Below, in pieces: positions 24,224 through 54,756 of a DNA stretch of 64,000 nt (its first letter is position 1; every line of letters begins with the position of its first letter). This DNA is from Anthoceros angustus (taxonomy: Eukaryota > Plantae > Anthocerotophyta). Position numbers and translations under genes: made by a program. The notes beneath the pieces are model-generated. The model was not told where the DNA came from. It did no database searches and saw nothing but the letters and a program-made list of their open reading frames with translations. The stretch is taken from the NCBI GenBank assembly GCA_010909165.1, contig VJWM01000302.1:1-64000 (forward strand), read 5' to 3'.

Positions 24224-24235
24224 GGATTGCTGATG
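24224..24235 (-). promoter_or_regulatory. Putative self-priming PBS of the DNMT-Gypsy
   Basis: Minus-strand CATCAGCAATCC directly follows the LTR-terminal CA and is perfectly complementary to LTR sequence at 15707-15718; no TGG tRNA-type PBS is present. Confidence 0.7.
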
Positions 24236-25101: not shown

Positions 25102-25119
25102 TTGCACCGTTGCCGGGGA
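25102..25119 (+). promoter_or_regulatory. tRNA-Asp-type PBS (Athila-like) of Gypsy B1
   Basis: TTGCACCGTTGCCGGGGA versus the Athila-type TGGCGCCGTTGCCGGGGA, 3 nt after the LTR end CCACA. Confidence 0.8.
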
Positions 25120-31070: not shown

Positions 31071-32047
31071 GGCGGTTCCTTCCCTTGCCCTTCCTTGAGG
31101 CATGGCGTCTTTCTTCCCAAGTGCTTCTAGGGGGTGAATTACTTCCCAAGTCTTGAGGAGAGCTACTTCCCAATGGCTTGTTCCCAAGTGCTTCTCCTCC
31201 TCTTGGGCGGCCAAAACCTCTCGAGACACAATTCAACGTTAGGCTGTGATGCTTCGGTTATGCAATTTTCCTCGAGCTCTCCTTCGGGCAAGCGCCTTGG
31301 GTGTAGTCGCGCGTTCTTCTTTAATCCCTTCCACAATTCGAGGTTATAGTGTGTTCAACCTGCGCCTCCCGGCGTTGGCGTCGCCTCGCCTCAAAGTTGC
31401 TCCTCCCTCCACTCCGTTCGAGGCTCGGAAGGTTCCTTCACGTCGCTCACGGCTTCTTCTCTTCTCCTTCCTTAGCCTCCGCTCTTCAATCGAGTTTCCT
31501 TCCTTCTCGGTGGCGACTCCCTCTTGTGCTCAACTTGTTCGCGTGGTGGTGGCGGCGATGGCGGTTTCTCCTTCTCCTCTTGCGCTTCTCCGGCTCAGTC
31601 TGATCTTGGCAGTGGGGCGCCCAATTGGTGGTGCCCCAAAGCGCACTTTGCCCTCCTTGGATGGACGGGCGCTCGACCCTAGATTTGGTTCACCATCCTA
31701 AAATACCTAATCCTCCTAACCTACCTGTATCCTTGTTTACTACCTCTAATTAATCTAATTATCTATTTATCTATTCCCTATTGGTGAGCATATATAGTGG
31801 ATATCCCCTATATTAATTTCTTTTGCGAGATCTCGTCGACCTACCACGGTAGTCTGCTTGACCTATCATGGTCTGCTTCCTCTCGCCCTCAGGCATAGTG
31901 TGGCGACCCTCTGATGATGCTTGACCTGCCTTGGTGCCTTCCCGTCTCGCCTAGGAGTCGTTTTGACCTATTTCTTTTCCTGCGATATCCTCGCCTTCCT
32001 AACAATATTCCCTAGCTCACGGTTCTCGAAATTTCCTAGCATGTCCT

Positions 32048-34370
32048 TGTGGACAACGGACTCTCCTTAGGGTTAGGAAATAGGTGTTTGATTTCGTAGG
32101 TATGGAGTGTAAAATAAAGCGGAAAGGGAGGAAGAACACGGATGGCACTCGGGGTGTACATGCACTCACGGACTCGGGGTGAGTAGCGGACCACAGAGCC
32201 CACTCAGGAGGACCTTGGACTACGCCGAGTATCGGGATAATCGGACCCCCCCTCGGATCAAATGGGACCGTCGCAAGTAAAGTAACTTAGAAGTTGGGCG
32301 TGAGTTAGGCAGGCGGTGCCACATGGGACATGCGAGAGGAGGGCGGGCATCTGCGGACTAGGACCCGCGGGGTTGCCGATGGCGTTGGGTGCATTCACGC
32401 TCAGTACAGGTTCGGCGTAAGGTTAAATGCCTGTGGCATGGCGAGTAAGCGGAATCGTAAGGCGGGGAGTAGCGTATGCGGACCTCGGCGATTCACAGGC
32501 GGCGAAGGACACCCTCCGCTCATGCTACTCGGCGTCGCACAGGCTAGACCATTTCTCTTTGTGACCTCGCGCGGCATGATCTCGCGCTCGCCACCCCTCT
32601 GGCGCTATCTCTTGGGCACCCGGGCACCTTGGCAGCTCACCTTCGTGGTTGGAGGCGTGAGCAGCGAAGGCGTAGCGCCCGATTATCACAGACAATTGCC
32701 TACAGCGGAGGGGAAAGAAGGCGGCAATGGGACCCAAGAAGGCGGCGGAAGTGTAGAGCCACAGGCGCTGGTGGAGCGCAACATCGTCACCCGGAGATAT
32801 CCCGACTTGGACCACCGGTTGGCGGAGGCGGAGAGGACACAGTGGAGAAGTGGCACCTTGACATCTTGAGCGGTTTGGGACGTTTGGCATCACGTCGGAA
32901 TCAGAAGATCTTTGGCGTTGCCAATAAGAATGCGCTCAAGAGCCTAAGGAGGACCCGGAGGTGGACGTGGAGGTCTGAGGAGGTATGCCCGGTGGAGGAG
33001 ATTGGGGGTGTAGTTCCAGAGCCCCTCAAGGTGAGAGGGAAGGTGGAAGCGGCAAAGGCGGCGATGCTGAGGCCAGGGACCCAGCGGTCGTCCAATGGCT
33101 GGCTGATGTCGGACCTACTGGATAGGCGCGTGAGGGCAGTGGCTAAGGTCATTGTCCATTGGAACATGCTCACCAAGGTGGATCACCTTGGTGACAATCT
33201 GTTGGTTTTCCTGCACGCCCTCCAGCGAGGCAAACGGACCGATTGGGGAAGAATCATCCTCGCTCGGATCAATCAGGAAGCCAGGAAGCTACGGAGTGAG
33301 AAGCCGCCTCCTTCGGCGTTGTCCCCCTTCCTCATCCATGTGTGGGGCCACCTCAACCTCACGAAGGAGAGGAGGCAGGCGCTTGAGGAAAGGGGTGGCG
33401 GCACTGAGGCGGAGGCGGGAAGGGGTGGCGCCAGGCGAGCCCGGCCAGGCCAAGCAGGTCGGAGAAGATGATTGGGAGGATTCGGACTCCATTCGGAGCG
33501 GACACCCTCGCCGCCGGAGGTATGGGAGGATATTCCGCCTCCTCATTCAGTTCGAGACGGAGGCGGGCCTTGACGGGTGCACCCAGGAAGGGAGGCTGGC
33601 CCGTGGCGGCGCACGGCAACCCGCCACAACTCCGGCGGAGCCACGCGGGGGCAAGCAGTGATCAAGGCGGAAGGTGGCTCCCCTGCGAGCGCCAAGGCTT
33701 CCCGGTGCCTCTGCCTGCCTGGTGGGCGAAGGGAGGCGATAAGCGGCGAGGGGCGGCCCAAGGCGGGGGCCCTTTGGCGGCCACATCGAGCCCGTCATGT
33801 CTCCGGCGGGAAGGCAGCTAGCTCGAACTCCCTCACCCCCTCCGAGCCCAGAAAGAGGCGGAGAAGGTGGCGGCCAAGAGGGCCAAGGAAGGTGAGGCTC
33901 GGGACCTCATTTTCGAGACCTAAGAGGTCTGATTAGGTCCGAGAGAGCCCGGTCAGGACGCTCGACTCAGTATGGGTCCTTAGCGGGCCAAGGAGATGCC
34001 GCACCACAGCGGACTTCTTGGGTGCCTCACGGTGGCGGCCGTGGAAGAGACACGGCGGGTTTTAGCTACTCATGGGCATCTCTGGTCTCTGTGGGGCCCA
34101 GAGAGAAAGACCCGAGGAGGTAACAGGCGCATGGTGCTCCTCCGGGAAGCGGATGGAGGCGGCCAGGCAAGAGAAGGCGGAATCCCTCGAATTGAGGAGG
34201 AAGCCTGGGAGGCGGAAGCAGGAGAGTCTGGTCCATTCGGCAGGACCAGACCAAGGTCCTTCAGTTGTGAATGGTGAAGAGCCTGGGAGGCCCAAATGCA
34301 GGCGGACCTCTGCGAGAAGGAGGGAGTGGCCTTGAGCCGAGAGGAGGCGGAGGGCAAGCGGGAGAGGCCG
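32048..34370 (+). mobile_element. B3: 3'-truncated B-family LTR inserted into the A1 LTR
   Basis: Starts TGTGGAC..GGACTCTCC, matching the B2 LTR start (reverse complement of 47344-47534), and continues collinear with the reverse complement of 41750-43927. Confidence 0.82.
32629..33471 (+). pseudogene. LTR-embedded accessory ORF of B3 (best-preserved segment)
   Basis: SNGWLMSDLLDRRVRAVAKVIVHWNMLTKVDHLGDNLLVFLHALQRGKRTDWGRIILARINQE...ALSPFLIHVWGHL; homologous DNA at ~42900-43500 on the minus strand. Confidence 0.72.
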
Positions 34371-37300
34371 GGACCTAGTTCAAAAAAAAATCAAGTTCGT
34401 GCTTCCTCTGGCTCTTTTGGGCTGGTTGCCCAAACTTTTGCATTCACATACTCCCTCCTCCTGTCGCGTCCTCGCAAACAAGCAGTGGTGAAGGTACTTC
34501 TTAACCTTCCACCCATTCACTCTAGTAGGCAGTAATTCTCCTCCCGGCACTCGCGATTGCGGATCCATTCTGGTATCGCCACCACCTCATAAGGTCCCAT
34601 CCATCTCGACCTAATCTTCCCAGAAGTCCAGTGCAAACTATCGTATAGGAGACAAATCCCGACCACAACCTCACCTTCCTCATCTTCCCATCATGCCGGT
34701 CTTTCCTGAGTTCTTGAATCCGCTGGGTTTCTTCTAAGGCGTCTTCTCTACGTTCCTCCTGTTCTACGAAAGACTCTAACCTAGCTACTTGACTATCTTC
34801 TACGGTCATTGTGGCGCGACTTTCGCTGACGGTCAACTGGGCGCGCACAATCCCGTGTCGTTGTAGTAAGGAGGTCCGTTCCCAAGAGAATGATAGGCTC
34901 CGTTGGCCACGTTTCAAGCGTTTCTCACCTCACGTAGTACCCGTCTTAGACTCCGCACACACATTCATCGTTTTCGACTTCGTATCATTCACCGGACGGG
35001 CCAGCGTGGCGACGTTTAAGGACCCGTTCGCGTCGTGTCATTCAAGTTGTCACTCGCCCTCTAGTCGTTCCTCTCATTCACACTTCACTCACTATCCTTG
35101 GGAAAAATCGCGTGGCTGCGTGATCGGGACCTCCTCCGCTTTGCTGGGCCTCCGTCCGGGCTCTACGCCCTCAGGAGTTCCCCTAGCTCCACCACGTTCC
35201 CGGTCAGGTGGCCTTTGGGTGTTGCTCGGGACAGCAAGTCGGGTGCCTTCCCTGCACACACCACCACGTTAGGGTCCGTCACGGGACCTTGATCGATCTC
35301 TCCGGGGCTGTCGGCTTGCTTTCGGATGACTCGGGACTCCGTTCGAAGGCACGCAAGGGCCGCAAGGCATCAACACCAAGAGAAAGATACTTTGCCGAGG
35401 CAGCCTCGGCCCTCTTGTCTCGCGAATGTCGGCGTCTTTGTCCCACCTATTGCAGCGTGGCCATTCGGTGTGCCCTAATCGGCCGCCTACCATCTTCGCC
35501 TCCCCTATCTCGTCGTCGGTAGTGGGCTGGGGATGCCTTGGTTCGCCTCGGCCGGTAACCCTCCTTGCCTGCGGGTGCGCCCCATGGATGATCCGGCGAA
35601 CCTTCCCCTTCCTAGACTGTCGAGGTTGGGCTCGGCGTGATCGGCCCGCACCACCACATCTTCCTCCTGGCCCGGTGGGTCCCCTCGATGGGGCCCGTGG
35701 CTGTTCCCCTTGCGTGAGTGGGAGGGGTCCCCCTCACCTCTGTCGGACCTGGAGGTCGGTCTCGGCTCCAGTCGGCAGTTCGAGACTTATTTCCCAGTCG
35801 GTCTTCCAAGTCGGTCTCATCTCGAGGTTACCCTCAAGGTCGAACACCAGTCATCCTCAAGTCCGGACCCCCAACCTCCGGACCACCTCTTGGAAGTGTC
35901 TCATGACCTCCTTCCATGGCGGATCCAGTTGGTTTCCTCCTTCCTCACCTCCTTGGGACCCTTGTCCCTATCCTCCTTGTTGATTGGTTGCGGCTGTCTT
36001 ACCTCCAAGTCGGTTGTGTTGGCGCGTCCTTGCTCCTCTGGGGCTCTTCTCCGCCCGCTGCCGTCGTCCCCAAGCAGGGGCCACCAAGGCCCCGTCTTTG
36101 TCCCCATGCCCTTCTTGCCAGACCTTGAGGTTCATCCGATTGCGGTGGCCGGGAAGCTTCGATGCCTTGAGGGCTCGGGGTAGTATGCGAAATCAGGTCC
36201 ATTCTTTGGATTGCCTTTTCCACACATGCGGGTGATACTCCCTTCGCCATAGGTGCTCACGAGGCTGACGTCTTGTCACGGCTTAGGTCCGTCTCCCTGC
36301 GTTTGTCGGTGGAGCCCGGTGTGGTAGGAAAACACAGGGCACTCGGTCCTCCCACTATGGCGGCCACACTTATCCCACTGTGTCGTTGGGTTTCGTCCCA
36401 TGAGACTTGTGTGAAAGTTCGAGGTCTTGTGATCACCAATCGCTACTGAGACACAACTCTCGGCCTTCTAAACAAAGGCGCCCTCTACTCTCCCTCTTCG
36501 CAGTGCACCGCACCTTTGCTTGAAAAATCGCCAATCCTCGACCTACAGCGACACAAACAATTGCGGTCGCCTCGGCGAGCCTATCACGGGCGCCGGGGAC
36601 CACAGCGATTTCGTCCCTACTTCTAAGACCACTCTTCTCCACTCGGGGCGCTCTTTTACTTGATTTGGGATTCGTCCCTTAGGCTGCACTGTGGCCTTCC
36701 ACTAACACCTACCTCTAATCCTCTACTCATCTTCTCATCTCCTCATCCTCTTCCTCCTATTCTAACCTCGATTCGGGCTTCGGGACTAGCCCTTACTGGC
36801 ACAGGTCGGCCTCCACCGGCAAGTTCTTCCTTGGGCGGTTGCTTGTGAGTTTGACACCACTCGGCGCCACGAGTCTTTCACATGGTGGTCTCCAGTGTTC
36901 ACAGGCATGCCACACACCCAAAGCAAAGCAATTTCACAACAACCATTCACAAAGCAACTCGTTTAGGCACGAGCAAGTCCTCCACCAACACTCAGACCAC
37001 GACTTCCTCTCTGCAGACTGCGTTGGCTCACGGTGCACGAAATTCCTCTGTAATGGCAAAGGACTCGATGAGGGTGGGCGCAGACATGATACTTTACTTT
37101 GTGAAATCCTCCTCCTCTTATAGGAGGCCTTCCACATACAACCTCCCTTAGGTGACCCTCTGCGGTCTATTCTAGTCCCACTATGATCCTTGTGTCTATC
37201 TCGATCCTTATCTTCTGGGGTGGTCTGACCATGTCTCTTGGGTGGTGACATACCTGCTTCTCCTTGCTCCTGTCCCTTCCCCAGATCTTGTCGCCTTCCT

Positions 37301-38122
37301 AATGTGTGGGGCAAGTACAATCCTGCCCCTTCCTCCATCTCCGCGGGGCGGCGCCTAAAGTCCTGTTACCTTCCATCAATCGCGCCCCCTCCCGCGCACC
37401 TAGGCGCCCTTTTCTCCAGCCTCCGCCGCCTGGTCGCGCCCCGTTCATCAGCACCCTACCGCGGTAGTCGGCGGACTACGTGTGTCTGATCCCTTTTCCT
37501 TCTTTCTCCATCGGTGAGGACTTCTGGGTCAAGATCTCCATTGCTCTTTGCCTTCTGTTTGGTTTGTCCATACCATAGAGCATCTTTAAAGAGTCTTCTT
37601 CCCCAATTGTCACCATGTCTAACTTCTCGGGCCTTTTTGCATTGGTCTCTCTCGGCCCTGGCTCCTCCCTTATCGTGGGGAGGAACTTCTCACCCTCCTT
37701 CCTCGGGGTGGTCGTCCAGTCTCCTCCGGTGGGGTTGTCTCTCCCACCTCAGCTGCTCCTCGGTATACTACGGACCCCGGCTCCTTCATCCTCGGCCGGG
37801 CCTCCTCGGCCCGGCCCGCTCCCGCCCGCGGCACACCACCCCGGTAGTCGCGGACTAGGCGTGGTGCTACCAGTGGCGGACTACCGTGGTTGGTCACCAC
37901 CATGTAGGTTGACCCCGGAGGGCTGTCCCCCTCCTTGCTCTTGCGCCATCTTCCACCTTTGGCGCTCGGCCTCCCTCATCTCGACTCCTCAGTTCCTCGA
38001 GTCCATTTTGATGGCCTCATCAAAATCGGAGGCCTCTGGCTGCACTGTTCGACTCCTTCATCATCATGAGGACCCAATGTCCTCCTCTTGGCCGCAAGAT
38101 TTCATTGTTGGCCTTCAAAATT

Positions 38123-40283
38123 CTATTGTGGAGGTGAGCCCCAAGCTATGATATTGCATTTGGAGATCATCAATCTCGTGGGCCACTCTCCATCTTCACA
38201 CCTACCTTTGTAGGCGTCCCTTGAGGTGGTCAATTCCCCCACCTTGACATGGAGGGTCACATTCTCCTCCCTCACTTCCTTTAGCTGGCTGGCCAATTTT
38301 GCCTGAAGGGCGTAGTCTGCCCAAAATCGCCGCTTCCTTACTACCAGCATTCGGTGCACCACCTTCTTGTGATGCTCCTCCTCTTGGAACCTCCTTTGTT
38401 CCAGCTCAGCCATTTGCTTGGCAAACTTTTCCTTCTCTTCCTGCCAAGCAGTCCTCTCGCGCTCCATTTCTTGCAGTTGTAGGTCTTGAGCTTCTAGCTC
38501 CGAGCGCTTCTCCTCCAAATTGAACCTGATCCTTCGCAATTCCTCTTCCATGTCCCGGATCTTGATGGCTTGGGTAGCCATCACCTGCTCCTGCGCTTCC
38601 AATTGCTGGACCGCTATCTCTCTCCTAGCCTCTGTTTTGCCCTTTCGTTCTTGCTCTAATTGGGCAAAGTGCTCCTCATATACATCTCCATGAATCCCGT
38701 TGGGTGGTGCCGAATAGCCCTCTCTTGACTGCGACACCTTCCCTTCAGGACTTTGCCGCCGCTCATCCATGAGGCGTTGGAGCTTCTCTGACCTTTTCCG
38801 GTTTGGCTGCCTTCTCGTCGGACTCCATGGCCTCCAATTGCCATTTGGTCCCTGCCTTCCTCCCATGTCTTGGGCTTTCACTTCCTCTTGGCCCACAAGG
38901 AGGCTGCTAGTCTCTAGCCCCTTCAAATCCACAGTGAGTGCTTCACAAGCACTCGGCCAATTCTCCTAGGGGTCCTAATTCCCTCACCTTCTTTGGAAAT
39001 TTCCAGCTCTCACGCCGTGGCCATCATGGCGGCCTTGGTCCCCTCACCGCTCCATCCGCTCTTCCTCCCAATGCGGTGGTGGCCTCGGCGCCCGCGCATG
39101 GCGCTTCTCTCCTTCCCTTCCCCTCCGCGGTTGCCACCGTGGGGTGCTGCTACCGGTGGGCTGTCCCCTCGGTGATGCTACCTACCCTCTGGCGGTGGTG
39201 ACTACCATGGTGGTCGCCCACCCTTGGGTGGGCGCCTCCCTGGGTGAGGTGCCGGGGTGCCTCTTAGGCACAAATGAGATGGTGGGGACTCCCCACCCTT
39301 GGAGCCATAGTTCTCCTCTCATAGAACCACTACTTGGCCTTCTTGGCGCTCTCCTTCTCCCTTGCTCTGTGGGAAAAGCCTCACTCCCGGTTGCCTCCAC
39401 TTCTCCTCCTCTAGCATGCTTGTGGAGTCGACCTCCCGTCTTCCGCAATGCAAAAGGCAAGGCCTTTCCAAGCTTGGTGGAGATGATGATCTCAGAAGGA
39501 TGCCAGCATCTTCAATTCCTTGAGAAGCCCTTCGGTTTCCACAAATGCACCAAATAGGTGCTGAGGTAGCTGGGCCCTTCCTCATCCACGAATTTGGCTT
39601 GAGGAGCTTTCTCGGTGGTGGATGTCCTCATTCATGGTGCAATCGCTTGGCTCCTCTTGAAATCTTCCACAAAATTGGAGGAAGTTGTGAAAATGCGTCC
39701 TTTGGTAATTTACCAACTGCACAATCTTTGCGAAGAGCCTCCACTTCAGCTCCTTGATGCTTTCTATCTTCCAGCCATTTTTGGCATGGGCCTTCACTCC
39801 TCCGTCCACCATGTCGAGGAGCTCCTGCGGAATTTCGGAAAGGGCCGTTCTCTTTCCTCCATTTGTCCTCTCGAGGAGGGCAATTCCAGAGCTCTCTTCC
39901 TCCGGTCTCCCATAGACCTGTCGAATGCTCCTTACGGTCCAGCAGCGGGGATCCGTTCGAGCATTTCTCTCCGGTAATGCGGCAAGGGCTGCCTCAGACT
40001 GATGAAGATTGATGAAACATTCTTCAATCAGCTCCAAATTGGTGTAGGCCCATTGGCGGCCATACACCCATCCCAATTGGATGTTATCCTCTTCTGCCCA
40101 CTGCCGAAAATCAACCAAATCCCGAGGGTTAAGCTGCCCAGCAAAGCAAGTGAATTGGGGCATCACAAGTTCACCTCCCCCTGGCGGCGCAGCCCCCGCT
40201 GCTGCCTTCTTTCCTTTTTCTCCTCGCGAGGAGGAGCCCTTGGCAGGCGGTTCCTTCCCCTTGCCTTTTCCAGCTCGAGGCAT
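38123..40283 (-). pseudogene. LTR-embedded accessory ORF of A2: conserved globular domain plus long coiled coil
   Basis: ORF 39582-40283 (233 aa) and ORF 38123-38932 (269 aa, heptad-rich E/K/R/Q), joined by frameshifted low-complexity sequence. Confidence 0.78.
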
Positions 40284-40997
40284 GGTGCCTTTCTCTTCTC
40301 CAAATGCTTCAAAGGAAGGGAATTACTCTCCGAATTGGCAATCTCGAGGCTTGCTCTCAAACGCTCCTTCTCCCAGTCAGCAAACCCCTCATGAGGCACA
40401 ATTCCCACGTTAGGCTTGATGACGCTCCTACACTGCTGCCAATTTTCCTTGCGATTCCTCTCTTCAGGGCGGGGTGCCGCCGATGGGTGGTCGAGGTCCT
40501 CCTCCCTTCAACCGTCAATTTCCTCAACCTTGCGCCTTCTGCCCTTGACGTCTCCTTCCAATGCTCGCGGCGTTGAGGAGACTTCCCTCCTCTGGTGGCG
40601 CACAGCGTTCGGCGTTCTTCTCTCTCCTTCCTCCTCTTGGCGCTCAACTTGTGGCTAGGGTTCTCCCTCCCCTTCAGCTGGCGCGCAATCTCCTTTCCCT
40701 CCTTCGCGCTCCGTAGCGATGGCGATGGCGTTGGTGATAGCAACCTTCCTTTTCTCCCTCCGCCTTACGCTCCAGCTCCAGTCCCAGTTCTTCGCGAAGT
40801 GAGGATGCCTCCGTTCAAGAGTTGGCGCCCAAGCACTTTGCCCTCTTGGATGCACCACAGAGTTCCCAACCCTGGATCTGGTTCAACATTCTAAATTACC
40901 TAAGCCTTCCTAAATTACCTATTTTCCTGCCTTATCCGCTTCCCCAAATTAGTCACCTTCTAATTAATCCTATTTATCTACTCCCCTATTGGTGAGC

Positions 40998-41016
40998 ATA
41001 TATAGTGGATATCCCC
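40998..41016 (-). promoter_or_regulatory. Conserved TATA-like box upstream of the LTR-embedded ORF
   Basis: ATATATAGTGGATATCCCC is identical at 31790-31808 and similar at 1485-1513, in each case upstream of the minus-strand ORF. Confidence 0.5.
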
Positions 41017-43927
41017 TCATATTAATTTCTTTTTCCAGGTTAGTCAACCTACGTGATGCACTTACCACGGTGGTGCTTCTTTTCCGGCGTGGTGTGGCGA
41101 CCTACGGGTAGTCACGACCTACCGACTTCGGTGCCCTCACGCGCCAAATGCGCGTTTTGTTCTTCTTCACAGGATATCCTTTTCACTTCCTAACAATATT
41201 TTACAACTCCTTCAAGATTCTCGGAAGTTTTCTTGGCATGTTCCTTTTCAATCGGTCTTAGCGAAAAATCAAACACTTGTCCTTGGCGGTTTGAATGGTT
41301 GCCCAAACACTTTACGTTCCACACGAGTCTCGCGAGGACAGCCTCATTTTCTTGAATGGCGATGCTTTCATGCCTCGGCTCCGTCGTTTCAACTCATGCC
41401 CGACTTACGCCAGGCACGGCGTTCCCCCTGCTTTCATAGCTGGGCGGTAGCTTCTCTGCGTAGGCTCTTCTTCCGTTCATTCGGCACGGGCTCGCCATCT
41501 CTCTTTCGAGGCTGGCGATTCACTTGGTAGCGCTTCATCCAGTTCTTCTCCATCTGGCGTCTGCTCCTTGTTCCATGCCTTACCTCCTCGATGCCGGTGA
41601 GCGCTCTATCTCGCTCGTGATCGCGATCACCCGTGAAACCCGCGCTCGATTGTCTCTTAAATTGCGCTCAAGGTTTCCTGCGGTCTTCCATCTCTACCCG
41701 TTGCTCTTCCACCGCGCAAAGAGTCGGAGATCCTCCATCTCCTTATTGCTGGCCTCCTTCTCCCCTCATGACCCTAGCACCTCCGCCTCTGTTAGAGGCT
41801 AGCTGGCGGTCCTTGCCGTCTCCTCAGGTCAGGAGTCCCTTTAGTGATCACAGTCGGTTTTGGCACACTTCCTCTGCCGCCTTCACACCTCCCGCGGCTT
41901 GGTGTTGTTCGCCCTAACCCGCCTGAGGTGCCCTCTCACTTGCCCTCGGCCTCCTCTGCTTCCTTCTGCGCTGCCCCCTCCTTCTGGGTCCTCTGGTCTT
42001 GGGCCTCACAATGCGTGTGATTGTTCACTGGCGAAGGACCTTAATACAGTCTGCCCGAATGGACAGACCTCCTTGCCTCCCGCGCTTTCCCTCCTCAGTG
42101 GCGAGATTCGCCTTCTTCTTTGCCTCACAGGCCTCCATCGCTCACGGAGGAGCACCATCGCCTCCTTGTTGCCTCCACCTCAGGTCTTTTAGTCCCACGG
42201 GGCCAGGCGTCCATGGATGCCAAAACTCCCGCCGTGTCTCTTCCACGGCGCCCTGAGGCACCCAGAAGTCCGTCGTGGGTGCGGGCATCTCCCATCCAGG
42301 ACCGCCATAGTCCGGGCAGTCGGGCTCTCCGGACCTAATCGGGACCCTTAGGTCACAGTGCGAGTCAGGAGCCTCCTTGGCCCTCTTGGCGCCAATTCCT
42401 TCTCGCCCTCTTTCTCCACAGGGCTCGGAGGGTGAGGAGTTGAGAAGCGCGTTCCCTCTCCCGTCGGAGCAGGGCGGGCTCCGGATGTTGCGCGGTGGCC
42501 CCAGGCGTCCCTCTCTGCTCGCCTTCTGCCTCCTCTGCCTCTTGCCACTCAGGTGAGGCGGGCTGTGCGCTCCTTGGCGCTTTGTTGGTGGAGCCACCTT
42601 AGCCTCTTATTTTCGTTTCGTCCGGCGTGGCTCATTGCGGGTTGTGGCGGTTCTTTGGTGGCGTCGCCTTGACTCCCTTCCGTGGGTGCACCCGTCTGCT
42701 CGTCTCGGGAACCCGAGAAGGAGGCGGGAATATCCTCCCATACCTCTCGGGCGGCGGTGTCCGTTCCAGTCGAATGGAGTCCGGAATCCCCTCCCAATCA
42801 TCTTCCTCCCGGACCCGTTTGGCCTTGGGCGGTCGGACCGCCTCTGGCCTTCACCTTCACTCTGCCTTGGTGGTCGCCCAAGCGCTCCTCCTCTCCCTCC
42901 TTGAGGTTGGGGTAGCCCCACATGGATGAGGAAGGGGACAGCCGAAGGAGGCGGCTTCTCACTCCGTAGCTTCAGCTACAGGCAGTCAGGCGAGGATGAT
43001 TCCCCAATCGGTCCGTTTGCCTCGTTGGGCGTGCGGGAAAACCAGTTGTCACCAGGTGATCACCTTGGTGAGCATGTTCAATGGACAATGACCTTAGCCT
43101 TTGCCCTCACGCGCCTATCCAGTAGGTCGACATGACCATTGGACGACCGTGGGTCCACAGCCTCGGCATCGCTTCAGCTTCCACCTTCCTCTCACCTTGA
43201 GGGCTCGGAACTACACCCCAATCTCCTCCGAGGCGGTTGTATACCTCCCTCAGGACCTCCACGGTCCACCTCCCGGGGTCCTCCCTTAGGCTCTTGGAGC
43301 GTACCTCCTTATTGCAAGCGCCGGCATCTTCTGGCGTATTCACGGCAGGCGTGATCTTTGTCAAGCGTCAAGCTCTCAAAGATGTCAAGGTGCCACTTCT
43401 CCACCAGGTCCTGCCTCGCCAAGGTCAGTGGGATATCTCGGGTGGCGATGTTGCGCTCCACCGAGGCTCACACTTCGCCTTCTTGGGTCCCATTGCCGCC
43501 TTCTTTCCCCTCAGTGGGCAATTATGCATGATAAGCGGGCCTGCTCCTCTTCGCCCAGCGTTGCTCCAACCACAAGGTGAGCGGGTGCTGGGTGCGAGAT
43601 GCGCCCAACGGGGTGGCGGGCCCAGGCTAATCGTCGGTCAAATGGTCTCCCGAGCGGCGTCGGGAGTAGTCGCGGAGGCTGTCCCGCCGGTTGCCGTGGC
43701 AGCCAGTGCGCATGGCCTACTCCTTGCGATCGCTTCTGCGGCCTTACCCGGCGTATAACCTTCTGGCGCAGCGTACTCGGGCGTGACCAAGATAACGGCT
43801 CCTGGCAACCCTGCGGTCCTAACTGCATGCCGTCCTCCTCGAGTCCAACGTGGCACCACTGTCTAACTCACGCTCCAACAAGTTACTTTACTTGGGTCTT
43901 GTCCCATTTTGGATCCGGAGGGTCGAC

Positions 43928-46900
43928 TAAAGAATTTGTGGCCTAGGATCGCATGTGTGCAATGCGTGATGATCGTGCAAGATGAAAGCAAGGAGACAAG
44001 AGCAAGTTGGGATTGTAAGATGTTCAACTAATGCACGAAAAGGTGTCTTATACAAAAAGCGGTTATTATTGTTATTGATTGATTTATTAATTAACTAATA
44101 ATAAAACTAAACCTAATTCTAATTGTGACTTAAATCACTATTATGTTTTAACACATTTTGTTCAAATAAGCTATATTCCATTACTCCCACTTAGTTGCAA
44201 TTAGGAGTTAATTAATAAGCTTGAAAATATCTTGAAGATGAACTTCACTAGGAAGTGTACTCCCATTTGTATAAGCGAAAAGAGTTTTGACAAGTGTGAA
44301 ATAAACAATAAGGCTTCATCCAATCACCAAGCCAAATAAAGGTGAGAATCAACTAATGAGTCGCTTCTGCTTTGTTCACTGCGGTATAGTTTGTAGCCCA
44401 CCAAAGTATGCTTCTCATGTACTAGCTTTGGCAAAGCTTTGTCAAAAGATCAGCCACATTCTCAAGTATCAACATAGTCCACTATTACCTCTTTACTCTG
44501 CGCTTGTCTTATAAAATGATGAGCAATCTCAATATGCTTGCTCCTAGCATGAAAACCGGATTCTTCGATAAAGCAATGGCGTGGATTGTCGCAAAGCGAG
44601 TTGGTCCTTCATGAAGTGCTTAAGTCCACATAAGAAAGATCTAATCCAAATAACCTCTCTAGACTTGTGTCATAGCACCATATTCCTTGTAGAGGAAGAG
44701 ACAAATAGTGGTGAGCTTTTACTAGACCAAGAAATAACGATCCACCTAAAAACGTAGTGGTGCTACACTCGTCTAGTGTCCGGGTCTCCAATCGGCATCA
44801 CAAAAGGACATAAGCAAACCATCCGATTGCTTAGAAAACGTAAACCTTTGCGTCTGTTCCTTTGAGGTACCTAAAATCCTCTTCACGCAGCCCAATGTGG
44901 CAAGCGGGGTTCTCTAAAAATTGACTAACATTACTAAGCTGCGCGTGTGTCTAATCTAGTCCAACGATAGATAAATTAAACAACCAACGACATCGATAAG
45001 GCTTGAGTGCCATCTCAACTTTTCTTCTTCTCTTGTTGGGCATTGTTCCTTAGATAGCTTTTCACCTATAGACATAGGTGTCGTGATCGTGCATCCTCCA
45101 TCTTGAATCTCTTAAGTAGTTGATGTACAAAATGCTCTTGATGAATATCAATAGTATTATCACGGGTGTTAAAATGAAATTGAACACCAAGAGAAAATGA
45201 TAACTGCCCCAAATCAGTCATATCAAATCTCGCCAAAAGAACTGCTTTTATTTTTGCCATAAGAGTTGGTGAAGTGCTAAATAAAATATTATCATCAACA
45301 TAAACAGTTAAAATGATAAAATCATTGCCATCCCATAAAATATATACGCTGGTATCAGCGTCCAAACATGTGAAACCCAATTCTATGAGCAATGCATGAA
45401 ACACTTCATTCCATGCACGGAGGATCATTTAAGACCATAAAGTGTTTTAAAAGTGACACACTTTATTAGGGTCTATAATAAAACCTTCCTTGGGCCATGT
45501 AGATGACCTCATCTAAGGTGCCATTAAGAAAAGCGCTTACGCCTAATCGATGAGGAGATTGTAGTGAGCAGCAAGGGCCAAGAGTATTCTTATGGAGGTA
45601 GACTTAACAACTGGGGCAAATGTTTCATTGTAGTCTAGTCCGCTACTTGACTATAACCCTTTGCCACGAGGCGAGCCTTATACCTACCAACACTACCATC
45701 GATTAAGTTTCTTCTTGAAGACCCACTTACAAGCAACCTGGTTTTGCGACCGGAGGAGATCAACGAGAACCCAAGTTTTGTTAGAAATGAGAGATTGATA
45801 TTCGGACTCAATAGCCTTTTGCCAAAAGGAAGCTTCAGGCCCTTCAATTGCTTCTCTATAGGTGGCGGTTCACCTAATGATTCTACAACACTAAAAACAT
45901 AAGGAGGTGGAAAAAGGGATTCCTCACGAATACTGCGACATATGGAGGCTCTTTCCACTGACCTTGGAGGACGGTGTCTAGTGGAACGCGTACTTGAGGA
46001 GGCTCTTCATTGGCTTCATTAACGCCATCTGTCTTTGGATCAAGCACAATGATGTCATTAGCCACCGGATGTGCGGGTGAACATCATCAACTACAACCGT
46101 TGGAGCGACAGGGGTAATAGGAGCACAAGCCAAAGAGGAGTCATCCTCAAAAATAGTAACACAAGAATCATCAAACGCAAAAGAGTCAAGGTGGGTCCAA
46201 ACACCGATATAGATGCCGGAGGCATAGTTGCGCCGGAGGAAGTTGAGGAGCATGTTGACGAAGCAAAATATCTTCAAAAACCACACTTGGGAAATGGTCA
46301 CTGGCGTGTAATCGGATCAAACAACTTGTAACCCTTCACATCATCTGAGTAACCCACAAAAATTCTGACCGCCTTCAAATCCGATTATGACGAATAGTCA
46401 GAGGGACATAAGCATAAGCGGTGATCCAAAATACGTAGATGCCCTATACGGGCTTCTTTCCACCATCTCTCATAAGGAGTTGTCAATCCAAGCTCCTTAG
46501 TAGGCGATTGAGAACATAATTTGCACCATCAATGCCCCAATATCCACGAGAGGTCAAAAGTAAGAGAGGCCAAAGTAGCCTCTTGCGGTCCGTTTTTCCT
46601 CTCAAAGAAAGGAGTTCGAAAAGCGAGTATACGACAGTGAGTCGGTGTTGTATCCCTTCCAAAGAGCAAAATTCGAAAAGCATTGTGATGTATTCGCCGC
46701 CATTGTCATCACAGAAAATTTTAACCTTGTGACCTGTTTGCCGGGATGCCAACCGCACATAGGTTTGAAAACACATAAAAGCCTCGCTTTTATTTCTTAA
46801 CACATAAACAATACAATAGCGGCTCCATTCATCTATGAATGTAATAAAATAAGCAGCTCCTCCAAATGAGCTGGTGGACATAGGGCCACAAATATCACTA

Positions 46901-47343
46901 TGAATAGTATCCAAAAGGGCAGAGGCCCTTGTTGAGTGGAGATCCGTATATGGCTTAGAAAATGCTTTACTAAGTCGAGTGGAGTCACAAAAGGGGTGAC
47001 CAAGGGACATAGGTAAGTGGATCTCTAAAGTATCACCCTTCGTAAGAGATGCTAGACGCTGGAAATTTACGGGCGAGGCAGGGGCTCGATACCATAAAGA
47101 ATTTGTAGGCCTAGGATCGCAAAGAATGTAATGCGTGATGATCGTGCAAGATGAAAGCAAGGAGACAAAACAAGTTGGGATTGTAGATGTTCAACTAATG
47201 ACCGAAAAGGTGTCTATACAAAACGGGTTATTGTGATTGCTATTGACGGTTTATTAATTAACTAATAATAAAACTAAACCTAATTCTAATTTAAATCACT
47301 ATTGTGTTTTAACACATTTGTTCAAATAAGCTATATTCCATTA
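43928..47343 (-). mobile_element. Copia-3: internally deleted Copia (no gag/protease) with non-canonical TA...TA LTRs
   Basis: LTRs at 43928-44183 and 47095-47343; PBS 47084-47094; PPT 44184-44192; integrase IHSDICGP and DDNGGEY; RT YKARLVAKG and YVDD. Confidence 0.9.
44400..47080 (-). pseudogene. pol: Copia-3 integrase-RT-RNase H remnant
   Basis: ORFs 46483-47160, 45635-45958 and 45066-45428, plus RNase H fragments near 44450-44800. Confidence 0.88.
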
Positions 47344-47702
47344 CTGGACTTATCCGATGCATGTAGTCCGAAGGTCCTCCAGGCTGGGCTCGGTCCGATT
47401 ACCCCGAGTCAGTGCATCTGGGTCCGAAAGTGCCATCAGTGCTTCTTCCTCCCTTTCCGCCTTATTTTACACTCCATACCTCTGAAAAAATCAAACCCAG
47501 CTTATTTCCAACCCCAAGGGAGAGTCCGTCCACATACTCCCTTCTCATCACATTGGCCCGCCAACACCAGTATGGTACTTCTTCACCCGCCACCGTTTAC
47601 CCGGTGGAGCAGCGATTCACCATCTAGCGCCATGAGCGACCACATTCGCTGTAGACTGCACTACATGTGGCCCCATCCATCGCAAGTGAAGCTTGCCCGG
47701 GA

Positions 47703-50700
47703 TGATGAGTCATACAAGCTCTAGCAATATGTGTTGCATTACATTCATAATAGAAAGTACATGCCTTTATGTAGGCAAGGTAGTTGTAACCAATAAGTGG
47801 TTGTAACAACTAACCAATTAAATAACTACTAAAAGAAACTACCTAGAGCCCTAAGGACTAAATTAATTATTAAGTCCTAGGTGCCCTAGTGAAGAGTGCC
47901 CTAATAGTAAGCTATTTTATCACTCCCACTCACTATGAACTAGGGGTGATTTTCGACCAAAAGAGGTCTAGGAAAAACTAGTCTAGTAAAAACTAGTCCC
48001 TAACTAAACTTTACTTAAAGGCATAAAGTAAAACTTAAGGTAAAACTGAAAGTAATAATCACTATTAAAATAACTCCCACTTAAGGAGAACCGAGATGAG
48101 AAACTAATAACCCAACTTCAAGAAATAGGTGGAATTAAAACTAATTAAAAGTATTTAAGCGGATTTATATATAGAGGAAAATCCAGAAAATACCTAATTT
48201 CCGAAAAGGAAAATCAAAAGGATAATGGATAATACCCTTCTTCCTCAAACTTCACAAACGCGATCCCGACAACTTGGTGGTTGGTACATGTGATGGCGAT
48301 GGGAGGGTGGCTACCCGCAGCAAGGCGCGCAATCCCCCCGGAGGAGGCGCCACGGGGCCATCGCCCACGAGCCCGCGGCCTCCCCGCGCGCCGCCGGCCG
48401 TAGGGCGGGCGCGCCTTCCAGCCGCCCAGCGCCCTGCAAGGACGCCACGGCGCGGCGCCCAAACAAAAGGAGAGGCGCCTACCGATGCATCTAGTCGTGT
48501 CCCCGCTGGTGATGAAGAGTCTCGCCTCGCACTCCCTTCCCGCACCGTAAAGAAATCCCTGCATTTGTCATTGATCCGACCTCATCCTCGGAGGATGGCG
48601 AACCAGAGATGCCTAAGGATCCTGGGACGGCCCAGCGAAGAGGGAAAGCTGAAGTCCGAGTGTAAGATTGCGTCTTCATTTTCTCGCCATGTCTTCATTT
48701 CCGCCATGTCTTCATTTGTGAAGCAATTCTGGATGTGCTCACCAAAGGGGAGGAAGCGCGCCTAGGTGATGAGGACGTGCCCTCCTCAATGAATGATGCT
48801 CCGCCGCAAAATGCCCACCTGCCAAAAGTGTTTGTAGGAAAGATTGCCGCCATCTTATGCTTCTAAGAAGAAGCTATGACACAAGTGGATTACAAGGATG
48901 CTATTTTGATGGATAAGAGGTCGACACTTGTGTGACGCTTGGTGCGATGGGTGGAGACGGCATGGGAGGATATGACAAGGAAGGAAAAGAAAGGTGCAAT
49001 ATATTAAATAAGGGTTATCCGATTTAAGCATCCTAATTTCTATATGAGTTTTAGGATCGAATAACCTAGCATAAATTTTCAGCTTGATGCGTAAACACAT
49101 TTTGTTTCCTAAGTGTATTAAAGACAAAAACATGGGCTATTATAAGCGAATTCTACCAAAAGGTGACCGGAAAATAAAGTATACATACTCACCTTAGGTT
49201 TAAGTGAAAAGGAGATGTCCGACTCCTATATATGTGAGGAAACTACCATCCACATGATAAAAATAGCAAGTCTCCCATGTGAGGAATTTCAGGACATATC
49301 AAACATATTTTCCGTAGGTGCCTTTGGTGCTAAGGGAATTTATTGTTTTAATCACATAAATACTGCTTAAATATTATTTTTATTTTTAATATAAATATTC
49401 CAGGTTCTATGTTGGCCGTCTATGAAGAGGAAGGGGATGATGACCTAAGCTATTTTGAGATAGAAGAAGAAAAATGTTCAGAAAAATAGTAAGACAATAA
49501 TTTTTGGGCTAAGATTTTAAGGTTATCTTAAATCGGCCCTAAGGCGCTAGGGTGAGTATTAGGTTAAAGGTTTGGACATGTGTCCATTATACCCAAACAT
49601 TTCATGTGTTTCCTATGTAACTCAATTCCCAATGACTTTGTTAATAAATCGACATTGTCTAAAGTTTGAACATAACTAATATTTATGGTTTGATCTTCTA
49701 ACTTTTCCCTTATGTAGTGATACTCAATATATATGTTTAGTTCTAGAATGAAAAGCAGATTTCGCAAGTGCAATGGCACGGCTATCACTAAACAAAGATG
49801 TAGGCTTAAGTTGAGGATGGTGAAGTTCACTCAAAACTAACTGGACCACACTATGTCTTTAGAACCGAGGTTAGTACCACAGTACTCGATTCGATTGACA
49901 AAGCTATAGTAGGTTGTTTCTTACTTGACCAGATATTGGTGCTCCTCCCAAGAGTAATACATACCCATGATTGTGTGTGTCGGGTCACAAAGATAGTCGG
50001 CATCGATATGCCGTTAGAGTTAATGTGTTGATAGCGGTGTATGCTTGAACATCGATCTGTGTACATAGTGCCTTTAAGGTATCGAATATACGCTCAGACA
50101 TCCGCTCACGCCCGTGGTTCTCCAAGAATTGTGAGCGTGGAACCGACTTCAAAAGATATATCCGGTCTCGTAAAATTGCATAAATATATTAGAGTGCCAA
50201 CGATGTCGGTATGGAACTGACATTTCTAGCTTTTCTTCATTGTTTTGGGACTCATATCCGAGGTAAGCCTAACACCACTTGCAAAAGGTGTGGGTGCTTT
50301 TTGCATCCTCAAGTCCAAATTTAGCTAAACTCTCCTTAATATACTTGGTTTGAACTATACTTAGAGTCTTATTACCTCTATTTCGTATAATATTAACACC
50401 AAGTGCATATGTCATTTCTCCTAGATCGGACATCTCAAATAGAGTCCTAAGCCATGCTTTAGTTTCGGCTAGGAGAGTGAGGGAGTTTGTTGCCATAAAA
50501 ACATCATCAACATAAAGTAGAAGATAAAATATATCATTGCGGATATTAGGATGTACATACATCACACCGGCTTTGCTTAAATCCTCTCCCAATAAGTTGT
50601 ACATGTATGGTTAATTCCAATTCTTGCTCGACCGCTTAAGGCCATACAAACCTTTGATGAGTCGGCATACCCAATCTTCTTTGCCTTTGACAGTAACCTC

Positions 50701-53700
50701 GGGTTGTCTCATGTATATTTCCTCTGCGCCATACAAATATCTTCTTAACATCCATCATGTGGAGTTCAAGATCATGTTGGGCACATAAGGCAAATATCAT
50801 TCAAGTGTGGCAATTTGGCATCATAAGTGGCCCAAGGTATGTAATCTAGACCGAGAATTTGTGTAAAACCTCTCGCTACTAGGCGTGCCTTATACCTTTC
50901 TATAGAACCATCTCCTTTTCTTTTAATTTTGAATACCCATTTGCTGGTTACTATCTTCCTACCCCTAGGTGGTTTGACCAATTCCATGTAGAGTTATTAA
51001 CTAGGGAATTATATTCGAATCTGACTACCTTCCATAAGTCTTTTCGGAGAAGAGAAAGCTTGTTTTAAGGTAAGAGGTTCTTCCGGGTCTATAGTTGCCT
51101 TGTAGACAGCTTGAGAATAAAGTGATATAGGGGTATAGGATCATCAAAAGCTAGGTATCCTAAAGGAGGTTCCTTCCAACTGCAGGACACGAGATAGTAG
51201 GTCGGGATCTAAGGTTGTACCTTTGTGCAGTGCATCATCCACGGGAGGCGGGATCAACAGGATCTGGCTCCACAATGTCATCCTCCGGAGGGTCATCAAA
51301 CTCATCATCATGAGTGTCAAGGCGCCCGCCGGGATGTCAACATCGTGTCTGCTTGAGTTGTACCGTTGTGGAATAGATGCTAACCTCCTCCTCCTGCATA
51401 ATAGGTTCAACTAAAGGAACACGAAGCGTGAATGGGAAATGGAGTGAAATAATCGATCATCAAAATAAGAAGGGTCAATGGTCTCATCAAGAGGAGGACC
51501 AAGCCTATCAGCTCCTGGGGAAAAGAGGTAAGACTCATGAAAAGTAACACTCGATATAAAAGTTGCCTTGTAGAAGGGTTGAACAATTTGTACCCTTTGA
51601 TACCTTGTAGCCAATGAAAAGTGTACTTAGTCGCTTTGGGATCCAACTTACGCAATGCTTTGGGAATAAAAACATATGCGGGATCCAAAAATTCAAGGTG
51701 GTCAATAGAAGGCTTCTTGCCAATGAATGCTTCATATGGAGTCATACCTTGAGCTGATGTAGGCAATCGATTCATGAGATAGGTTCTTAGGAGGGCCTCG
51801 CCAATAAGCCTTAGATAACTTAGCTTGTACCAATAAGCAACTGTGATCTCTTGAGGCGTAGATTCTTGTTCTCGGCTACGCCATTTTGTTGAGGAGTGTA
51901 GACAATCAGAAGTTGTTGAGCTATACCTTCACTCGACAAAAATCCTCAAATAGATGTAAACTCTCCACCATTGTCGGAACGTAAGGTCTTGAGTTTGTGA
52001 TCCGTAAGTCTCTCACCCATTTCATGTAGTCCTTGAAGAAGTGAAAGGCATCACTCTTGTTTTCGGGATGTAGGAAAAGACAAACGAGAGAAATCATCGT
52101 GAAGGTCAAAAATATCTACTACCACTAAAGGAGGGTGTAGACAAGGGTCCACAAATGTCTGTGTGCACTATCTCTAAAGGTGACTTGGCCCTTTGTGGAG
52201 ATTTATTTTGAAAGGCTCTTGATGTCGTTTAGTGAGGACACAAGATTCGCACCAAGGTAGGTGTTCAACCTTTGCAAGGCAAGGGTTCTATATAAAGCTC
52301 CCTTAGACATTTGGATTAATTTTTGACTATTAGGATGACCAAGGCGACAATGCCAAAGCATGGTTTGGGTAGGTGTCATGGTTTGGAATGGCAACATTAG
52401 CGAATGGGTGGCTCCCACTTGTACCGACAATCTATAGAGACCATCATCTAAAGTGCCATGATTGTATAGTTTCTATCACTTATGAAAGAGAGAAGACAAC
52501 TATTCGCATAAAGGATCACTGCAGAGTGTGTTCTTGACAAAGACTTGCTGATACTAGATTCTTGCACATTGAAGGAACATGGAGGACGTGATGAAGATGA
52601 AGAACTGACCGAATCACACTTGAATACAATCAACCGACACCGCAATGGGTAGGTTGTGATCATCTCCGGAGGATGACCGATGTCCTGGGGTGAGTAAGAC
52701 TCAAAAGAGTTTCATTGTAACAAATATGTGAAGTAGCTCCTTGCCTAAGTACCATGAGGTATTGGAGGGCTTGGAAGAAGCCAAGCACACAGTGAGCACC
52801 GCTGGAGTTGAGGAAGATTGTTTCACGCAATGTTAGCTCGTGTGGGCCTCCCCGAGGTTCCCATTCTTCTTCTTACGACAATCCTTTTCCATGTGATTTG
52901 GGATTACGCACCAATTACATATAATCCATCTTCTTGTTACCTCTTGCGGTGTTGAAGAAGATGCCTCTCCATCATGGAAAGTATGTGGATATGGGGTCGG
53001 AAAGTAGAACCTCGGCCTCGCCTCGTCCTCTTCCTCTACCCCTTTGTGAATACATCACCACCGCTTGTTGGCTCGGAGTGATGATGACGTCGCTTGCCTC
53101 CTCCGTAGCAATGCTCCAATAAGTTCGGAAACACGATGTCCGGCTCTTCATTTGGATCTTCATCTGCATTTTTCGACATTGAATCACGCATTTTGAGTTG
53201 TAATGAAAGCCCTATAAGAAGGTGGCAATGAAGATAAGAGAATGACGTAAGCCTCCATCTACGAGATAGGTACGCTTGAAGATTCCAAATGGGATCGTGC
53301 CAAAATGCATTAACATGATGTTCGATGGTGTCGGACTCCTTCATTGAGAGGTTGCGGAAGTTACGTGAAGCGCAACAATACTCATTACATCTCGAGATGA
53401 ATATAATTGAGCAAGGTGAGTCCACATATCCTTGGAGGTCTTTATGCGACATGTCTCACCATATGTTGAGAAAGTCCACGACCAATAAATCTTGTGCCTT
53501 CGCCCCTGGGCGTCCCGGAAGGTTGAAGTTCACGTTCAAATCGGGCGTGTGGCCTTGGAATTGATCCATCGACGATGCCCCAAAGGTCTCTTTGCCGCAA
53601 AGCTCCTCGCATTCTCAATGACCGATGTCATAATCCCTTCCATTGAATCTCTTTCTTGAAATGTCACCATAATGATAATGCAATGAAGTGTTAGCATTAT

Positions 53701-54756
53701 CATTACCCAATGGGGAATTAGGAACAGTTGTTCTTCATCATTGATCACTCCAGCCATTGTAGGTGATTTAGAGGACTAGGCCTCGCCGTACACCTCATCT
53801 TCTATTGCACGAAACTCTTCTCTTGCATCATAATCGATTCGGATGATGATAGCATGCTCTCAAATCTCTGCGCATTATCAACCTTAGAGAGAATAGACAA
53901 TTTTGTCCTTAATTCAGATAATTCTCCCTTAAGATCAAAGGATTGGATTCTAAGAGTTGCTAATTGACTATCAATTTCTTGAAATCTAAGAGTTTCTATG
54001 CTATTTTGTCTTGTGACTAGAAGATAAAGGAGTACTAATACCGATTCAAATTTGGGATATGTTGGAGAGCTAATTCTAATGCCTTGACGTGAATTGGACT
54101 AAAACTTCTAGCAAATCACGTCTAGCTAGCTTGATAAACTTCCCTTGATCCGGTTTAGAAATTAAAATAGATGCAATGAAGTTTGCTATACAAGAGGAGG
54201 TTTCTACTATCTCTCCTCTATAGCTTGTTGTCTTCTATTGCTTCTATGTGTTGGGCTCCTAATTTGTTCTTGTTGTCTTGCAGACTACTTCTCTTCTTAA
54301 CTCTATGCCTTCTCCTTCTAAGGAACACAAATCCATGGAGGAAGGAACAAAGAATTAGTGCATAAAAGCATTGTTAGAAGAGAAATGTTAGCATAAAAGA
54401 ATGCATGCAAAGATAGCAATTCTAGGATAAACACAATCCATCTAGGCAAATGCTAGATTAGAAAGTGTCTCCTAGATAAGCTACTTAGATGCATGAGGAT
54501 GCAAGCAAACAAAGAGCAAGTGTGCTCGATACCATGATGAGAATCATACACAAGCTCTAGCAATATGTGTTGCATTACATTCATAATAGAAAGTACATGC
54601 CTTTATGTAGGCAAGGTAGTTGTAACCAATAAGTGGTTGTAACAACTAACCAATTAAAATAACTACTAAAGAAACTACCTAGAGCCCTAAGGACTAAATT
54701 AATTATTAAGTCCTAGGTGCCCTAGTGAAGAGTGCCCTAATAGTGTTATTTTATCA
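47703..54756 (-). mobile_element. Copia-4: full-length Ty1/copia element with perfect TSD
   Basis: Near-identical TG...CA LTRs at 47703-47922 and 54535-54756; TSD CGGGA at 47698-47702 and 54757-54761; PBS 54524-54534; PPT from 47923. Confidence 0.95.
49564..53460 (-). pseudogene. gag-pol: Copia-4 gag-pol (heavily frameshifted)
   Basis: LSMKESDTIEHH; CNWC..PNHMEKDC; LWHCRLGH; TPYEAF; SKWVFKIK...YKARLVARGF; LLYVDD; WSSKKQ; YHYIRE...DLLTK. Confidence 0.9.

Follow-up and report, generated by a model that had tools for sequence, protein, structure and literature searches.

Giant long terminal repeats that likely carry an accessory gene in Athila-like retrotransposons of Anthoceros angustus

Introduction

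Long terminal repeats (LTRs) in plant retrotransposons are regarded as non-coding, and solo-LTR formation is seen as the way in which the host rids itself of an element's genes. The extra polypurine tract (PPT) of Athila elements is positioned upstream of their env-like open reading frame (ORF). Here we describe two Athila-like families, A and B, found in 64,000 nucleotides of Anthoceros angustus DNA (Anthocerotophyta; GenBank assembly GCA_010909165.1, contig VJWM01000302.1, positions 1 to 64,000), hereafter called the window. We consider it likely that the LTRs of these families are 5.0 kb (A) and 4.3 kb (B) long and that they carry an accessory gene in the unique 3' region (U3), because we infer that plus-strand synthesis starts at the purine tract that follows integrase.

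In Athila, the accessory ORF is internal, lying between pol and the 3' LTR (PMC7264820), the primer-binding site (PBS) is of tRNA-Asp/Asn type after an AT-rich spacer of 3-6 bp, and typical LTRs measure 1-2 kb (bioRxiv 10.64898/2026.03.20.713144). For the ORFs termed eORF-3'F, 166 hits to the ATHILA ORF-1 family PF03078 are given (PMC6317226 supplement 2), and both Athila4 and Calypso possess an extra PPT in the linker between pol and the LTR (PMC2829016). In mouse mammary tumor virus (MMTV), a whole ORF (sag) resides in U3 and is doubled in both LTRs, and U3 also holds extra promoters (PMC12789967, PMC2664473). The extent of U3 is set by the PPT cleavage site, and the region is copied to both ends in reverse transcription (PMC12789967).

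Results

LTR boundaries of the A and B families

LTR retrotransposons are nested within one another in the window, which has a GC content of about 50%, and self-comparison of the 64 kb resolved the nesting. Two elements retain the junction between integrase and the 3' LTR. The gag-pol region of B2 occupies 47547-59469 (minus strand), interrupted by a copia insertion at 47703-54757, and B2 itself sits within the integrase of A1. Our assignment of giant LTRs is based on three observations, namely a purine tract followed directly by TG, two independent insertions that begin at that same TG, and a continuous line from ORF to PBS in a third element, B1.

First, the PPT of B2, GAGAAGGGAGTA (47546-47535, minus strand), lies directly 3' of the integrase end and is followed by TGTGG at 47534. 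The PPT of A1, GGAGGAGGGAGTA (34461-34449, minus strand), likewise follows the C-terminal end of integrase (34462-34809) and precedes TGTGA at 34448. The two integrase C-termini align through the purine tract, and the alignment stops at the last base of the tract (score 68, null 21). GGGAGTA matches 11 times in the window, and an immediate TG is present after only two of these matches, exactly the two post-integrase sites. Another match, at 36242, was ruled out as a PPT, being coding (EHLWRREY in both B1 and B2) with no TG after it.

Second, both LTR starts that were found in foreign flanks correspond to the post-integrase TG. B3 (32048-34380, plus strand) is a B-family LTR, truncated on its 3' side and with an ORF beginning at ATG 32727, that is flanked by A-LTR sequence; its alignment with B2 starts at exactly 32048/47534, the PPT-adjacent TGTGG. 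The start of the second such unit, A2, aligns to the start of the A1 3' LTR (34381-34448, minus strand) within 3 nt of the TG. The outer flanks of A2 and B3 yield no alignment to PPT or integrase sequence (18 versus a null of 18.6, and 28 versus 26.2). The 5' end of a third, distant copy, C, was also tried as an LTR boundary; it looks A2-like by eye, its alignment score is at null, and we do not count it.

Third, B1 (plus strand), which is split by two insertions, runs colinearly from the 3' half of the accessory ORF through pieces of the LTR end to CCACA|TTT, the primer site and gag. Its piece at 6903-8021 contains the 3' half of the accessory ORF of B and, when matched to the same half in B2, spans the site where A2 is inserted: 6903-7210 pairs with B2 41619-41339 at a score of 127, where shuffled sequences reach at most 84, and 7267-7995 with B2 36318-35601 at a score of 199, where they reach at most 117. 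A middle piece (14897-15412, with TATAAAG at 15219) and a last piece (24683-25098, ending in CCACA) align to the B2 LTR end, the alignments covering 14909-15428 and 24691-25098. Beyond them, 25099-25119 comprises a short AT-rich spacer, including a T run, and a tRNA-Asp/Asn-type PBS as in Athila (25102-25119, two mismatches), which was seen for B only. A gag-like region homologous to B2 59469-58700 follows at 25400-26589, its start being approximate.

The lengths of the LTRs are given by A2 and B2. A2 (36320-41323, minus strand), located within the accessory ORF of B2, is a solo-LTR-like unit of 5,004 bp with the termini TGTGG...CCACA, which starts like the A1 LTR and ends like an A-family LTR end inserted in B1 gag (26590-28044, minus strand). 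It has no terminal direct repeat (29 versus a null of 27), and its translation contains no gag or pol frame. The 3' LTR of B2 is in three pieces on the minus strand: 47346-47534, which matches B3 from the first base; 41324-43927, where the frameshifted accessory ORF starts at ATG 43493; and 34810-36319, which comprises the 3' end of the ORF plus the repeat (R) and unique 5' (U5) regions and ends with CCACA in the A1 integrase. From 47534 to the CCACA at 34810, less A2 and a nested copia element with short LTRs (43928-47345, minus strand), the net length is 4,303 bp.

LTR ends read CCACA in all five cases found, in five different flanks, including B0 (27-222, plus strand), a B-family LTR end situated in the ORF of C. 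The A copy ending at 26590 exhibits unbroken similarity to A2 from U5 to 37597, towards the end of the ORF, with no break at a second PPT. A 19-nt pattern drawn from U5 was located at two metagenome loci that match over 22 nt only, and these were taken as chance. The A1 3' LTR continues at 29268-32047 (minus strand, ORF ATG 31103) and is rearranged leftward, such that 29051-29268 is a piece of U5 joined to the ORF and 28566-29029 is an inverted ORF end; this is either a real rearrangement or a mis-assembly.

A preliminary description of this DNA had reported a PPT and TG near the integrase end of B2 and A1 with the accessory ORF beyond, the 3' half of the B1 ORF upstream of an LTR end and PBS, and A2 as a TGTGG...CCACA unit carrying the accessory ORF alone. 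The data above bear out each of these lines, and together with the exact start of B3 they support the LTR boundaries as originally read, with the ORF inside the LTR. The proposed LTR sizes of about 4.3 kb (B) and 5.0 kb (A) agree with the net B2 length and with A2, but the rearranged LTR of A1 is not a clean 5 kb.

The accessory ORF and its relatives

In A2, the ORF extends from ATG 40283 to 38126 (minus strand) with several frameshifts, and it spans at least 2,158 nt, or at least about 720 codons. The encoded protein is laid out as an N-terminal helical domain, a low-complexity middle and a C-terminal coiled coil. Between the LTR start at 41323 and the LTR end come, in order, this ATG, the frame to 38126 and a candidate main LTR TATA box, CTATAAGA (37116-37123, minus strand), so that the whole ORF lies upstream of a putative U3/R border placed about 0.8 kb from the LTR end. 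Candidate main TATA boxes occupy the same side of the ORF, downstream, at 37123 in A2, at 27428 in the A copy, where the box is conserved, and at 15219 in B1. A short inverted repeat, GGGGCA...TGCCCC, is retained by the two A copies (37305-37336 and 27755-27790) within otherwise diverged surroundings, some 200 bp ahead of the main TATA box, and is possibly a cis-element. In A1, A2 and C, a candidate TATA-like box also precedes the ATG by 0.5-0.7 kb (40998-41004 on the minus strand in A2, in the same context at 31796 in A1, and similar at 1493 in C), which suggests that the ORF may have its own transcript ending in R, in a manner recalling the additional U3 promoters of MMTV.

The third, distant copy of the ORF, C (223-1704, minus strand, ATG 1014), has a 5' end near 1704 that is a guess by eye. 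Ordered motifs are common to A, B and C, among them, respectively, WTVRSIRQVY, WTVEVLREVY and WDLELVRRVY, and then PSYLSTYLVHLW, PSALSPFLIHVW and PSLISPFLVHLY. Frameshift-tolerant protein scores, calculated with 25 shuffles per pair and four controls, exceed z=4 in four of six pairs (C-B3 11.7, A2-C 8.2, A2-B2 4.6, C-B2 4.2), and all four controls score 2.4 or less. Judging from these sequence comparisons, A, B and C encode one distant family of helical and coiled-coil proteins whose members are linked through C.

Relatives outside the window are few. A Pfam search to E 10 returned no match for the A and B ORFs other than coiled-coil matches, and the Atlas gave weak leads, which for the A ORF are PF03078 (0.90; 155/256 features, low recognition) and PF20167 (0.88), and for the B core are unnamed Streptophyta clusters and DUF1985. 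Neither a word search nor phmmer over 1.84 billion representatives found relatives of the A2 N-terminal domain, which, in a mostly microbial collection, is weak evidence of novelty; sequence searches with the B core and an integrase fragment were also without match in a mostly microbial collection. Both predicted folds are poor (predicted local distance difference test values of 34 and 50), and a fold search of the PDB returned nothing at E 0.001. Transmembrane-like hydropathy is absent in 14 of 15 frames of these frameshifted copies (maximum Kyte-Doolittle value of any 19-mer below 1.2), and one 19-residue window of A2, not mapped to the ORF, reaches 1.62.

These results qualify two further statements of the preliminary description. 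The term 'env-like' is consistent with a position 3' of pol and with weak similarity to Athila ORF-1, but because 14 of the 15 frames contain no clear membrane segment we use it as a label of position and weak similarity only. Similarly, the ORF had been treated as one and the same in both families; A, B and C are indeed distant homologues, but the ORFs of A and B are not the same at the DNA level.

Selection on the ORF

Substitutions between A2 and A1 fall at the three codon positions in the numbers 9/7/22 for the N-terminal domain and 13/9/20 for the coiled coil, and the pooled counts (22/16/42, p=3e-4) are stable over three gap margins. The ratio of non-synonymous to synonymous substitution rates (dN/dS) is 0.14 in the N-terminal domain and 0.35 in the coiled coil, with the middle part near neutral. 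Single changes comprise 28 synonymous and 24 non-synonymous ones, where the expected synonymous share is 22%, and a third-position excess is absent in all six non-coding control frames. We interpret this pattern as purifying selection on the A ORF.

In the B family, the N-terminal domains of B2 and B3 differ at 6 of 117 columns, versus 24 of 113 in the upstream flank and 72 of 214 in the downstream flank, and show no synonymous excess; the selection test for B1 versus B2 is borderline. The comparison of dN/dS across copies that had been suggested earlier speaks for constraint in A, but B provides no synonymous excess to match it.

Alternative interpretations

Several observations weigh against the placement of a gene in giant LTRs. 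The foremost rival is the ordinary Athila layout, because the linker of Athila4 and Calypso holds an additional PPT (PMC2829016). In such a layout, the post-integrase tract would be this known extra PPT, the true LTR would be short (about 0.85 kb in B), the ORF would be internal, B1 would be a tandem sharing an LTR, and A2 and B3 would have arisen by truncation or through occasional priming at the extra PPT. A candidate second tract does exist in B, where a purine run and TGTGG at 35668-35658 could be a second PPT. B1 has a counterpart of 21 nt at 14945, some 250 bp upstream of the TATA box; purine runs of 10 nt or longer are common on that strand, with 41 in A2. Moreover, A2 has no recognizable target-site duplication (TSD) in its flanks, where 4-6 bp would be expected of a Ty3/gypsy element, unlike the nested copia elements, all three of which have near or exact TSDs (judged visually, to within 1-2 nt of their termini), and the far upstream part of B1 is missing, so a tandem is possible there. 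However, the ordinary layout needs three separate oddities, with A2 and B3 starting at the same base and B1 in tandem. The window contains neither an internal GGGAGTA|TG nor a short solo LTR with a mapped start, and the A copy ending at 26590 resembles A2 to 37597, well beyond any short-LTR start. We therefore regard the ordinary layout as unlikely.

The same second tract in B would also fit a mixed mode of priming, wherein both tracts work and the window has sampled a minority of long-LTR copies among mostly short-LTR ones. Strands primed at the upstream site are said to be outcompeted kinetically (PMC2829016), and the depth of short-read contigs (run X1), which is not a copy number, sums to 5575 at the A2 LTR end versus 700-1100 over the N-terminal part of the ORF. 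Yet the depth over the 3' part of the ORF, 3417, is close to that of the LTR end, and both LTR starts in foreign flanks, those of A2 and B3, represent the long form. We find mixed priming quite improbable.

Other points that count against a selected gene in giant LTRs concern completeness and statistics. No element in the window has both LTRs intact, and for this reason the claim that each element holds two gene copies and each solo LTR one is something we infer rather than observe. We found no counterpart of the TATA-like box ahead of the B ORF. The protein scores of A2-B3 (z=1.2) and A1-B3 (z=1.8) are not significant. The synonymous-share test, taken alone, gives p<0.05 at some margin in three of six control frames, and a frame-free periodicity test is not significant for A (p=0.12-0.33) while both positive controls are. 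Finally, the B3/B2 core shows 4/6/2 changes by codon position and one synonymous versus seven non-synonymous changes.

Sequence quality bears on both the frames and the junctions. Coding stretches across the window are interrupted every 100-300 bp. Between the two LTRs of one young copia element there are 1 substitution and 5 short gaps, the remaining pairs have about as many gaps as substitutions, and the short-read contigs show indel differences from the window at 240 places. Such a surplus of 1-3 bp indels relative to substitutions in young LTR pairs points to a long-read assembly that was insufficiently polished. It is therefore probable that many of the frame breaks are errors of assembly, and they are a weak guide to whether the gene is alive.

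Mis-assembly or nested rearrangement might have produced the apparent units, as the abundance of small indels, the scrambled A1 LTR and the A2 start would allow. No short-read contig covers that start (41284-41560), and contigs of run X1 do cover the stretch of A2 lying 60-140 bp inside it as well as the ORF. We give this explanation hardly any weight: A and B copies are 65-80% alike in the self-comparison, and therefore too different for collapsed or duplicated reads, the junctions fall on TG/CA termini in two starts and five ends, and the nested copia elements retain paired LTRs and TSD-like flanks.

Other elements in the window

All five A and B insertions with a readable flank (222, 26590, 32048, 34810 and 36320-41323) fall inside A, B or C relatives, whether ORF, gag, LTR or integrase. 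This distribution may reflect targeting, or merely an island of transposable elements. The copia element at 43928-47345 appears to have LTR termini reading TA...TA, not TG...CA.

A further gypsy element (15559-24682, minus strand) has LTRs of about 450 bp, a C5 DNA methylase stretch (PF00145) at 21079-21456 and a PHD finger after integrase at 17651-18208, and thus resembles the DNMT-gypsy elements of Klebsormidium (PMC5890265). Between its integrase-PHD region and its 3' LTR, an open frame of 264 codons (16282-17073, minus strand) has no Pfam match and is unrelated to the A and B ORFs. A direct repeat of 149 bp (97%) lies on either side of its left LTR, at 15413-15560 and 16008-16156; it may represent a small element or a solo LTR that is nested here.

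Discussion

If the accessory gene resides in U3 of giant LTRs, then the genomic RNA (R to R) would contain a single copy of the ORF at the 3' end, just as ordinary Athila RNA does. Priming at the post-pol PPT would yield a plus-strand strong-stop DNA of 4-5 kb that is copied to both ends, and the gene would be doubled in DNA at no cost in RNA length, with only the 3' copy being inherited. Recombination between LTRs would leave one gene copy, as in A2, and the upstream TATA-like box together with the LTR's own 3' end could allow each A LTR to function as a self-contained transcription unit. The simplest source of such an arrangement would be an Athila-like ancestor that had two tracts and switched its plus-strand primer, and the switch could have run in either direction.

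Because the protein lacks a clear membrane segment and combines a helical N-terminal domain, a low-complexity middle and a coiled coil, we lean somewhat towards a soluble trans-acting regulator, which might serve in transcription, anti-silencing or as a particle or integration helper, rather than towards an envelope. The proposals made for the accessory genes of Retand and Grande, and the plant mobile domains borne by gypsy elements (PMC5418596), offer analogies for a soluble helper role. A far more tentative proposal, which we hold to be doubtful, is that the post-pol tract is the sole plus-strand primer and that every solo LTR is a dispersed, self-contained and expressed trans-acting gene cassette. 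The extra PPT of Athila4 and Calypso would then be the other state of the same switch, possibly a relic of an ancestral giant-LTR boundary.

If a gene does lie in these LTRs, a solo LTR would retain a selected gene of at least 720 codons with a candidate promoter. Furthermore, a gene could come to lie in an LTR through the choice of plus-strand primer, a route that is open to testing, and the extra PPT of Athila would gain a possible meaning. We also predict that tools with LTR limits of 1-2 kb, the ATHILAfinder default (bioRxiv 10.64898/2026.03.20.713144), miss families of this kind.

The features of both families are those of Ty3/gypsy elements, with TG...CA termini, a PBS after the 5' LTR in B and a PPT before the 3' LTR. 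A three-frame reading of B2 pol gives the order protease, reverse transcriptase (RT), RNase H and integrase. The first three domains are assigned from motifs that we take to be diagnostic, as is the likeness of the RT to that of Athila, and integrase is represented by an Integrase_H2C2 match (E=9e-5) below the curated cut-off. An acidic protease-RT spacer of about 190 codons (57186-57761, minus strand) has no Pfam match. In this frameshifted copy there is no chromodomain after integrase, which ends at the PPT, and no archaeal RNase H was seen, nor is there room for one between RNase H and integrase, so the feature of Tat, Ogre and Retand is missing. We classify A and B from their sequences as Athila-like Ty3/gypsy elements, because the PBS and the lack of both chromodomain and archaeal RNase H fit Athila, but the internal position of the ORF does not hold.

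Athila and Calypso share with A and B the gypsy domain order, the absence of a chromodomain, the PBS type and a sense accessory ORF 3' of pol. In contrast, their ORF is internal, whereas that of A and B lies beyond the working PPT and within LTRs of 4.3-5 kb, and it has neither a Pfam match, coiled coils apart, nor a clear transmembrane segment. With respect to gene position, the closer parallel is MMTV sag (and the overlap of nef in human immunodeficiency virus), since the whole A2 ORF falls between the LTR start and the putative U3/R border. MMTV, however, is a retrovirus with an LTR of 1.3 kb, about one quarter the length of those of A and B, and sag is a membrane superantigen, whereas the A gene has at least 720 codons; no homology is implied. 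The accessory genes of Retand and Grande (TRP28, gene23), which are driven by a promoter of their own and for which a regulatory function in the nucleus has been proposed, offer a parallel to the present ORF and its candidate promoter, but they are antisense and internal, and the LTRs are only 0.3-1.2 kb.

LTRs of 2.5-5 kb are found in Ogre, BAGY-1, Retrosat2 and Diaspora (PMC1142308, PMC6317226, PMC3485330), and the available portions of their descriptions report no gene inside the LTR. Diaspora is similar to A and B in its long LTR and in a PPT close after pol, but differs in that its description mentions no lengthy ORFs in other frames; Retrosat2 differs in that its ORF0 is internal, upstream of gag-pol. 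We found no plant retrotransposon with an LTR-encoded gene in a literature search whose coverage excluded most subscription papers. Given that non-chromoviruses with LTRs reaching about 5 kb are already known (PMC6317226) and that reviews place extra ORFs internally (PMC7264820, PMC6317226), it is the LTR-borne gene that would be the new feature, placed on an otherwise Athila-like chassis.

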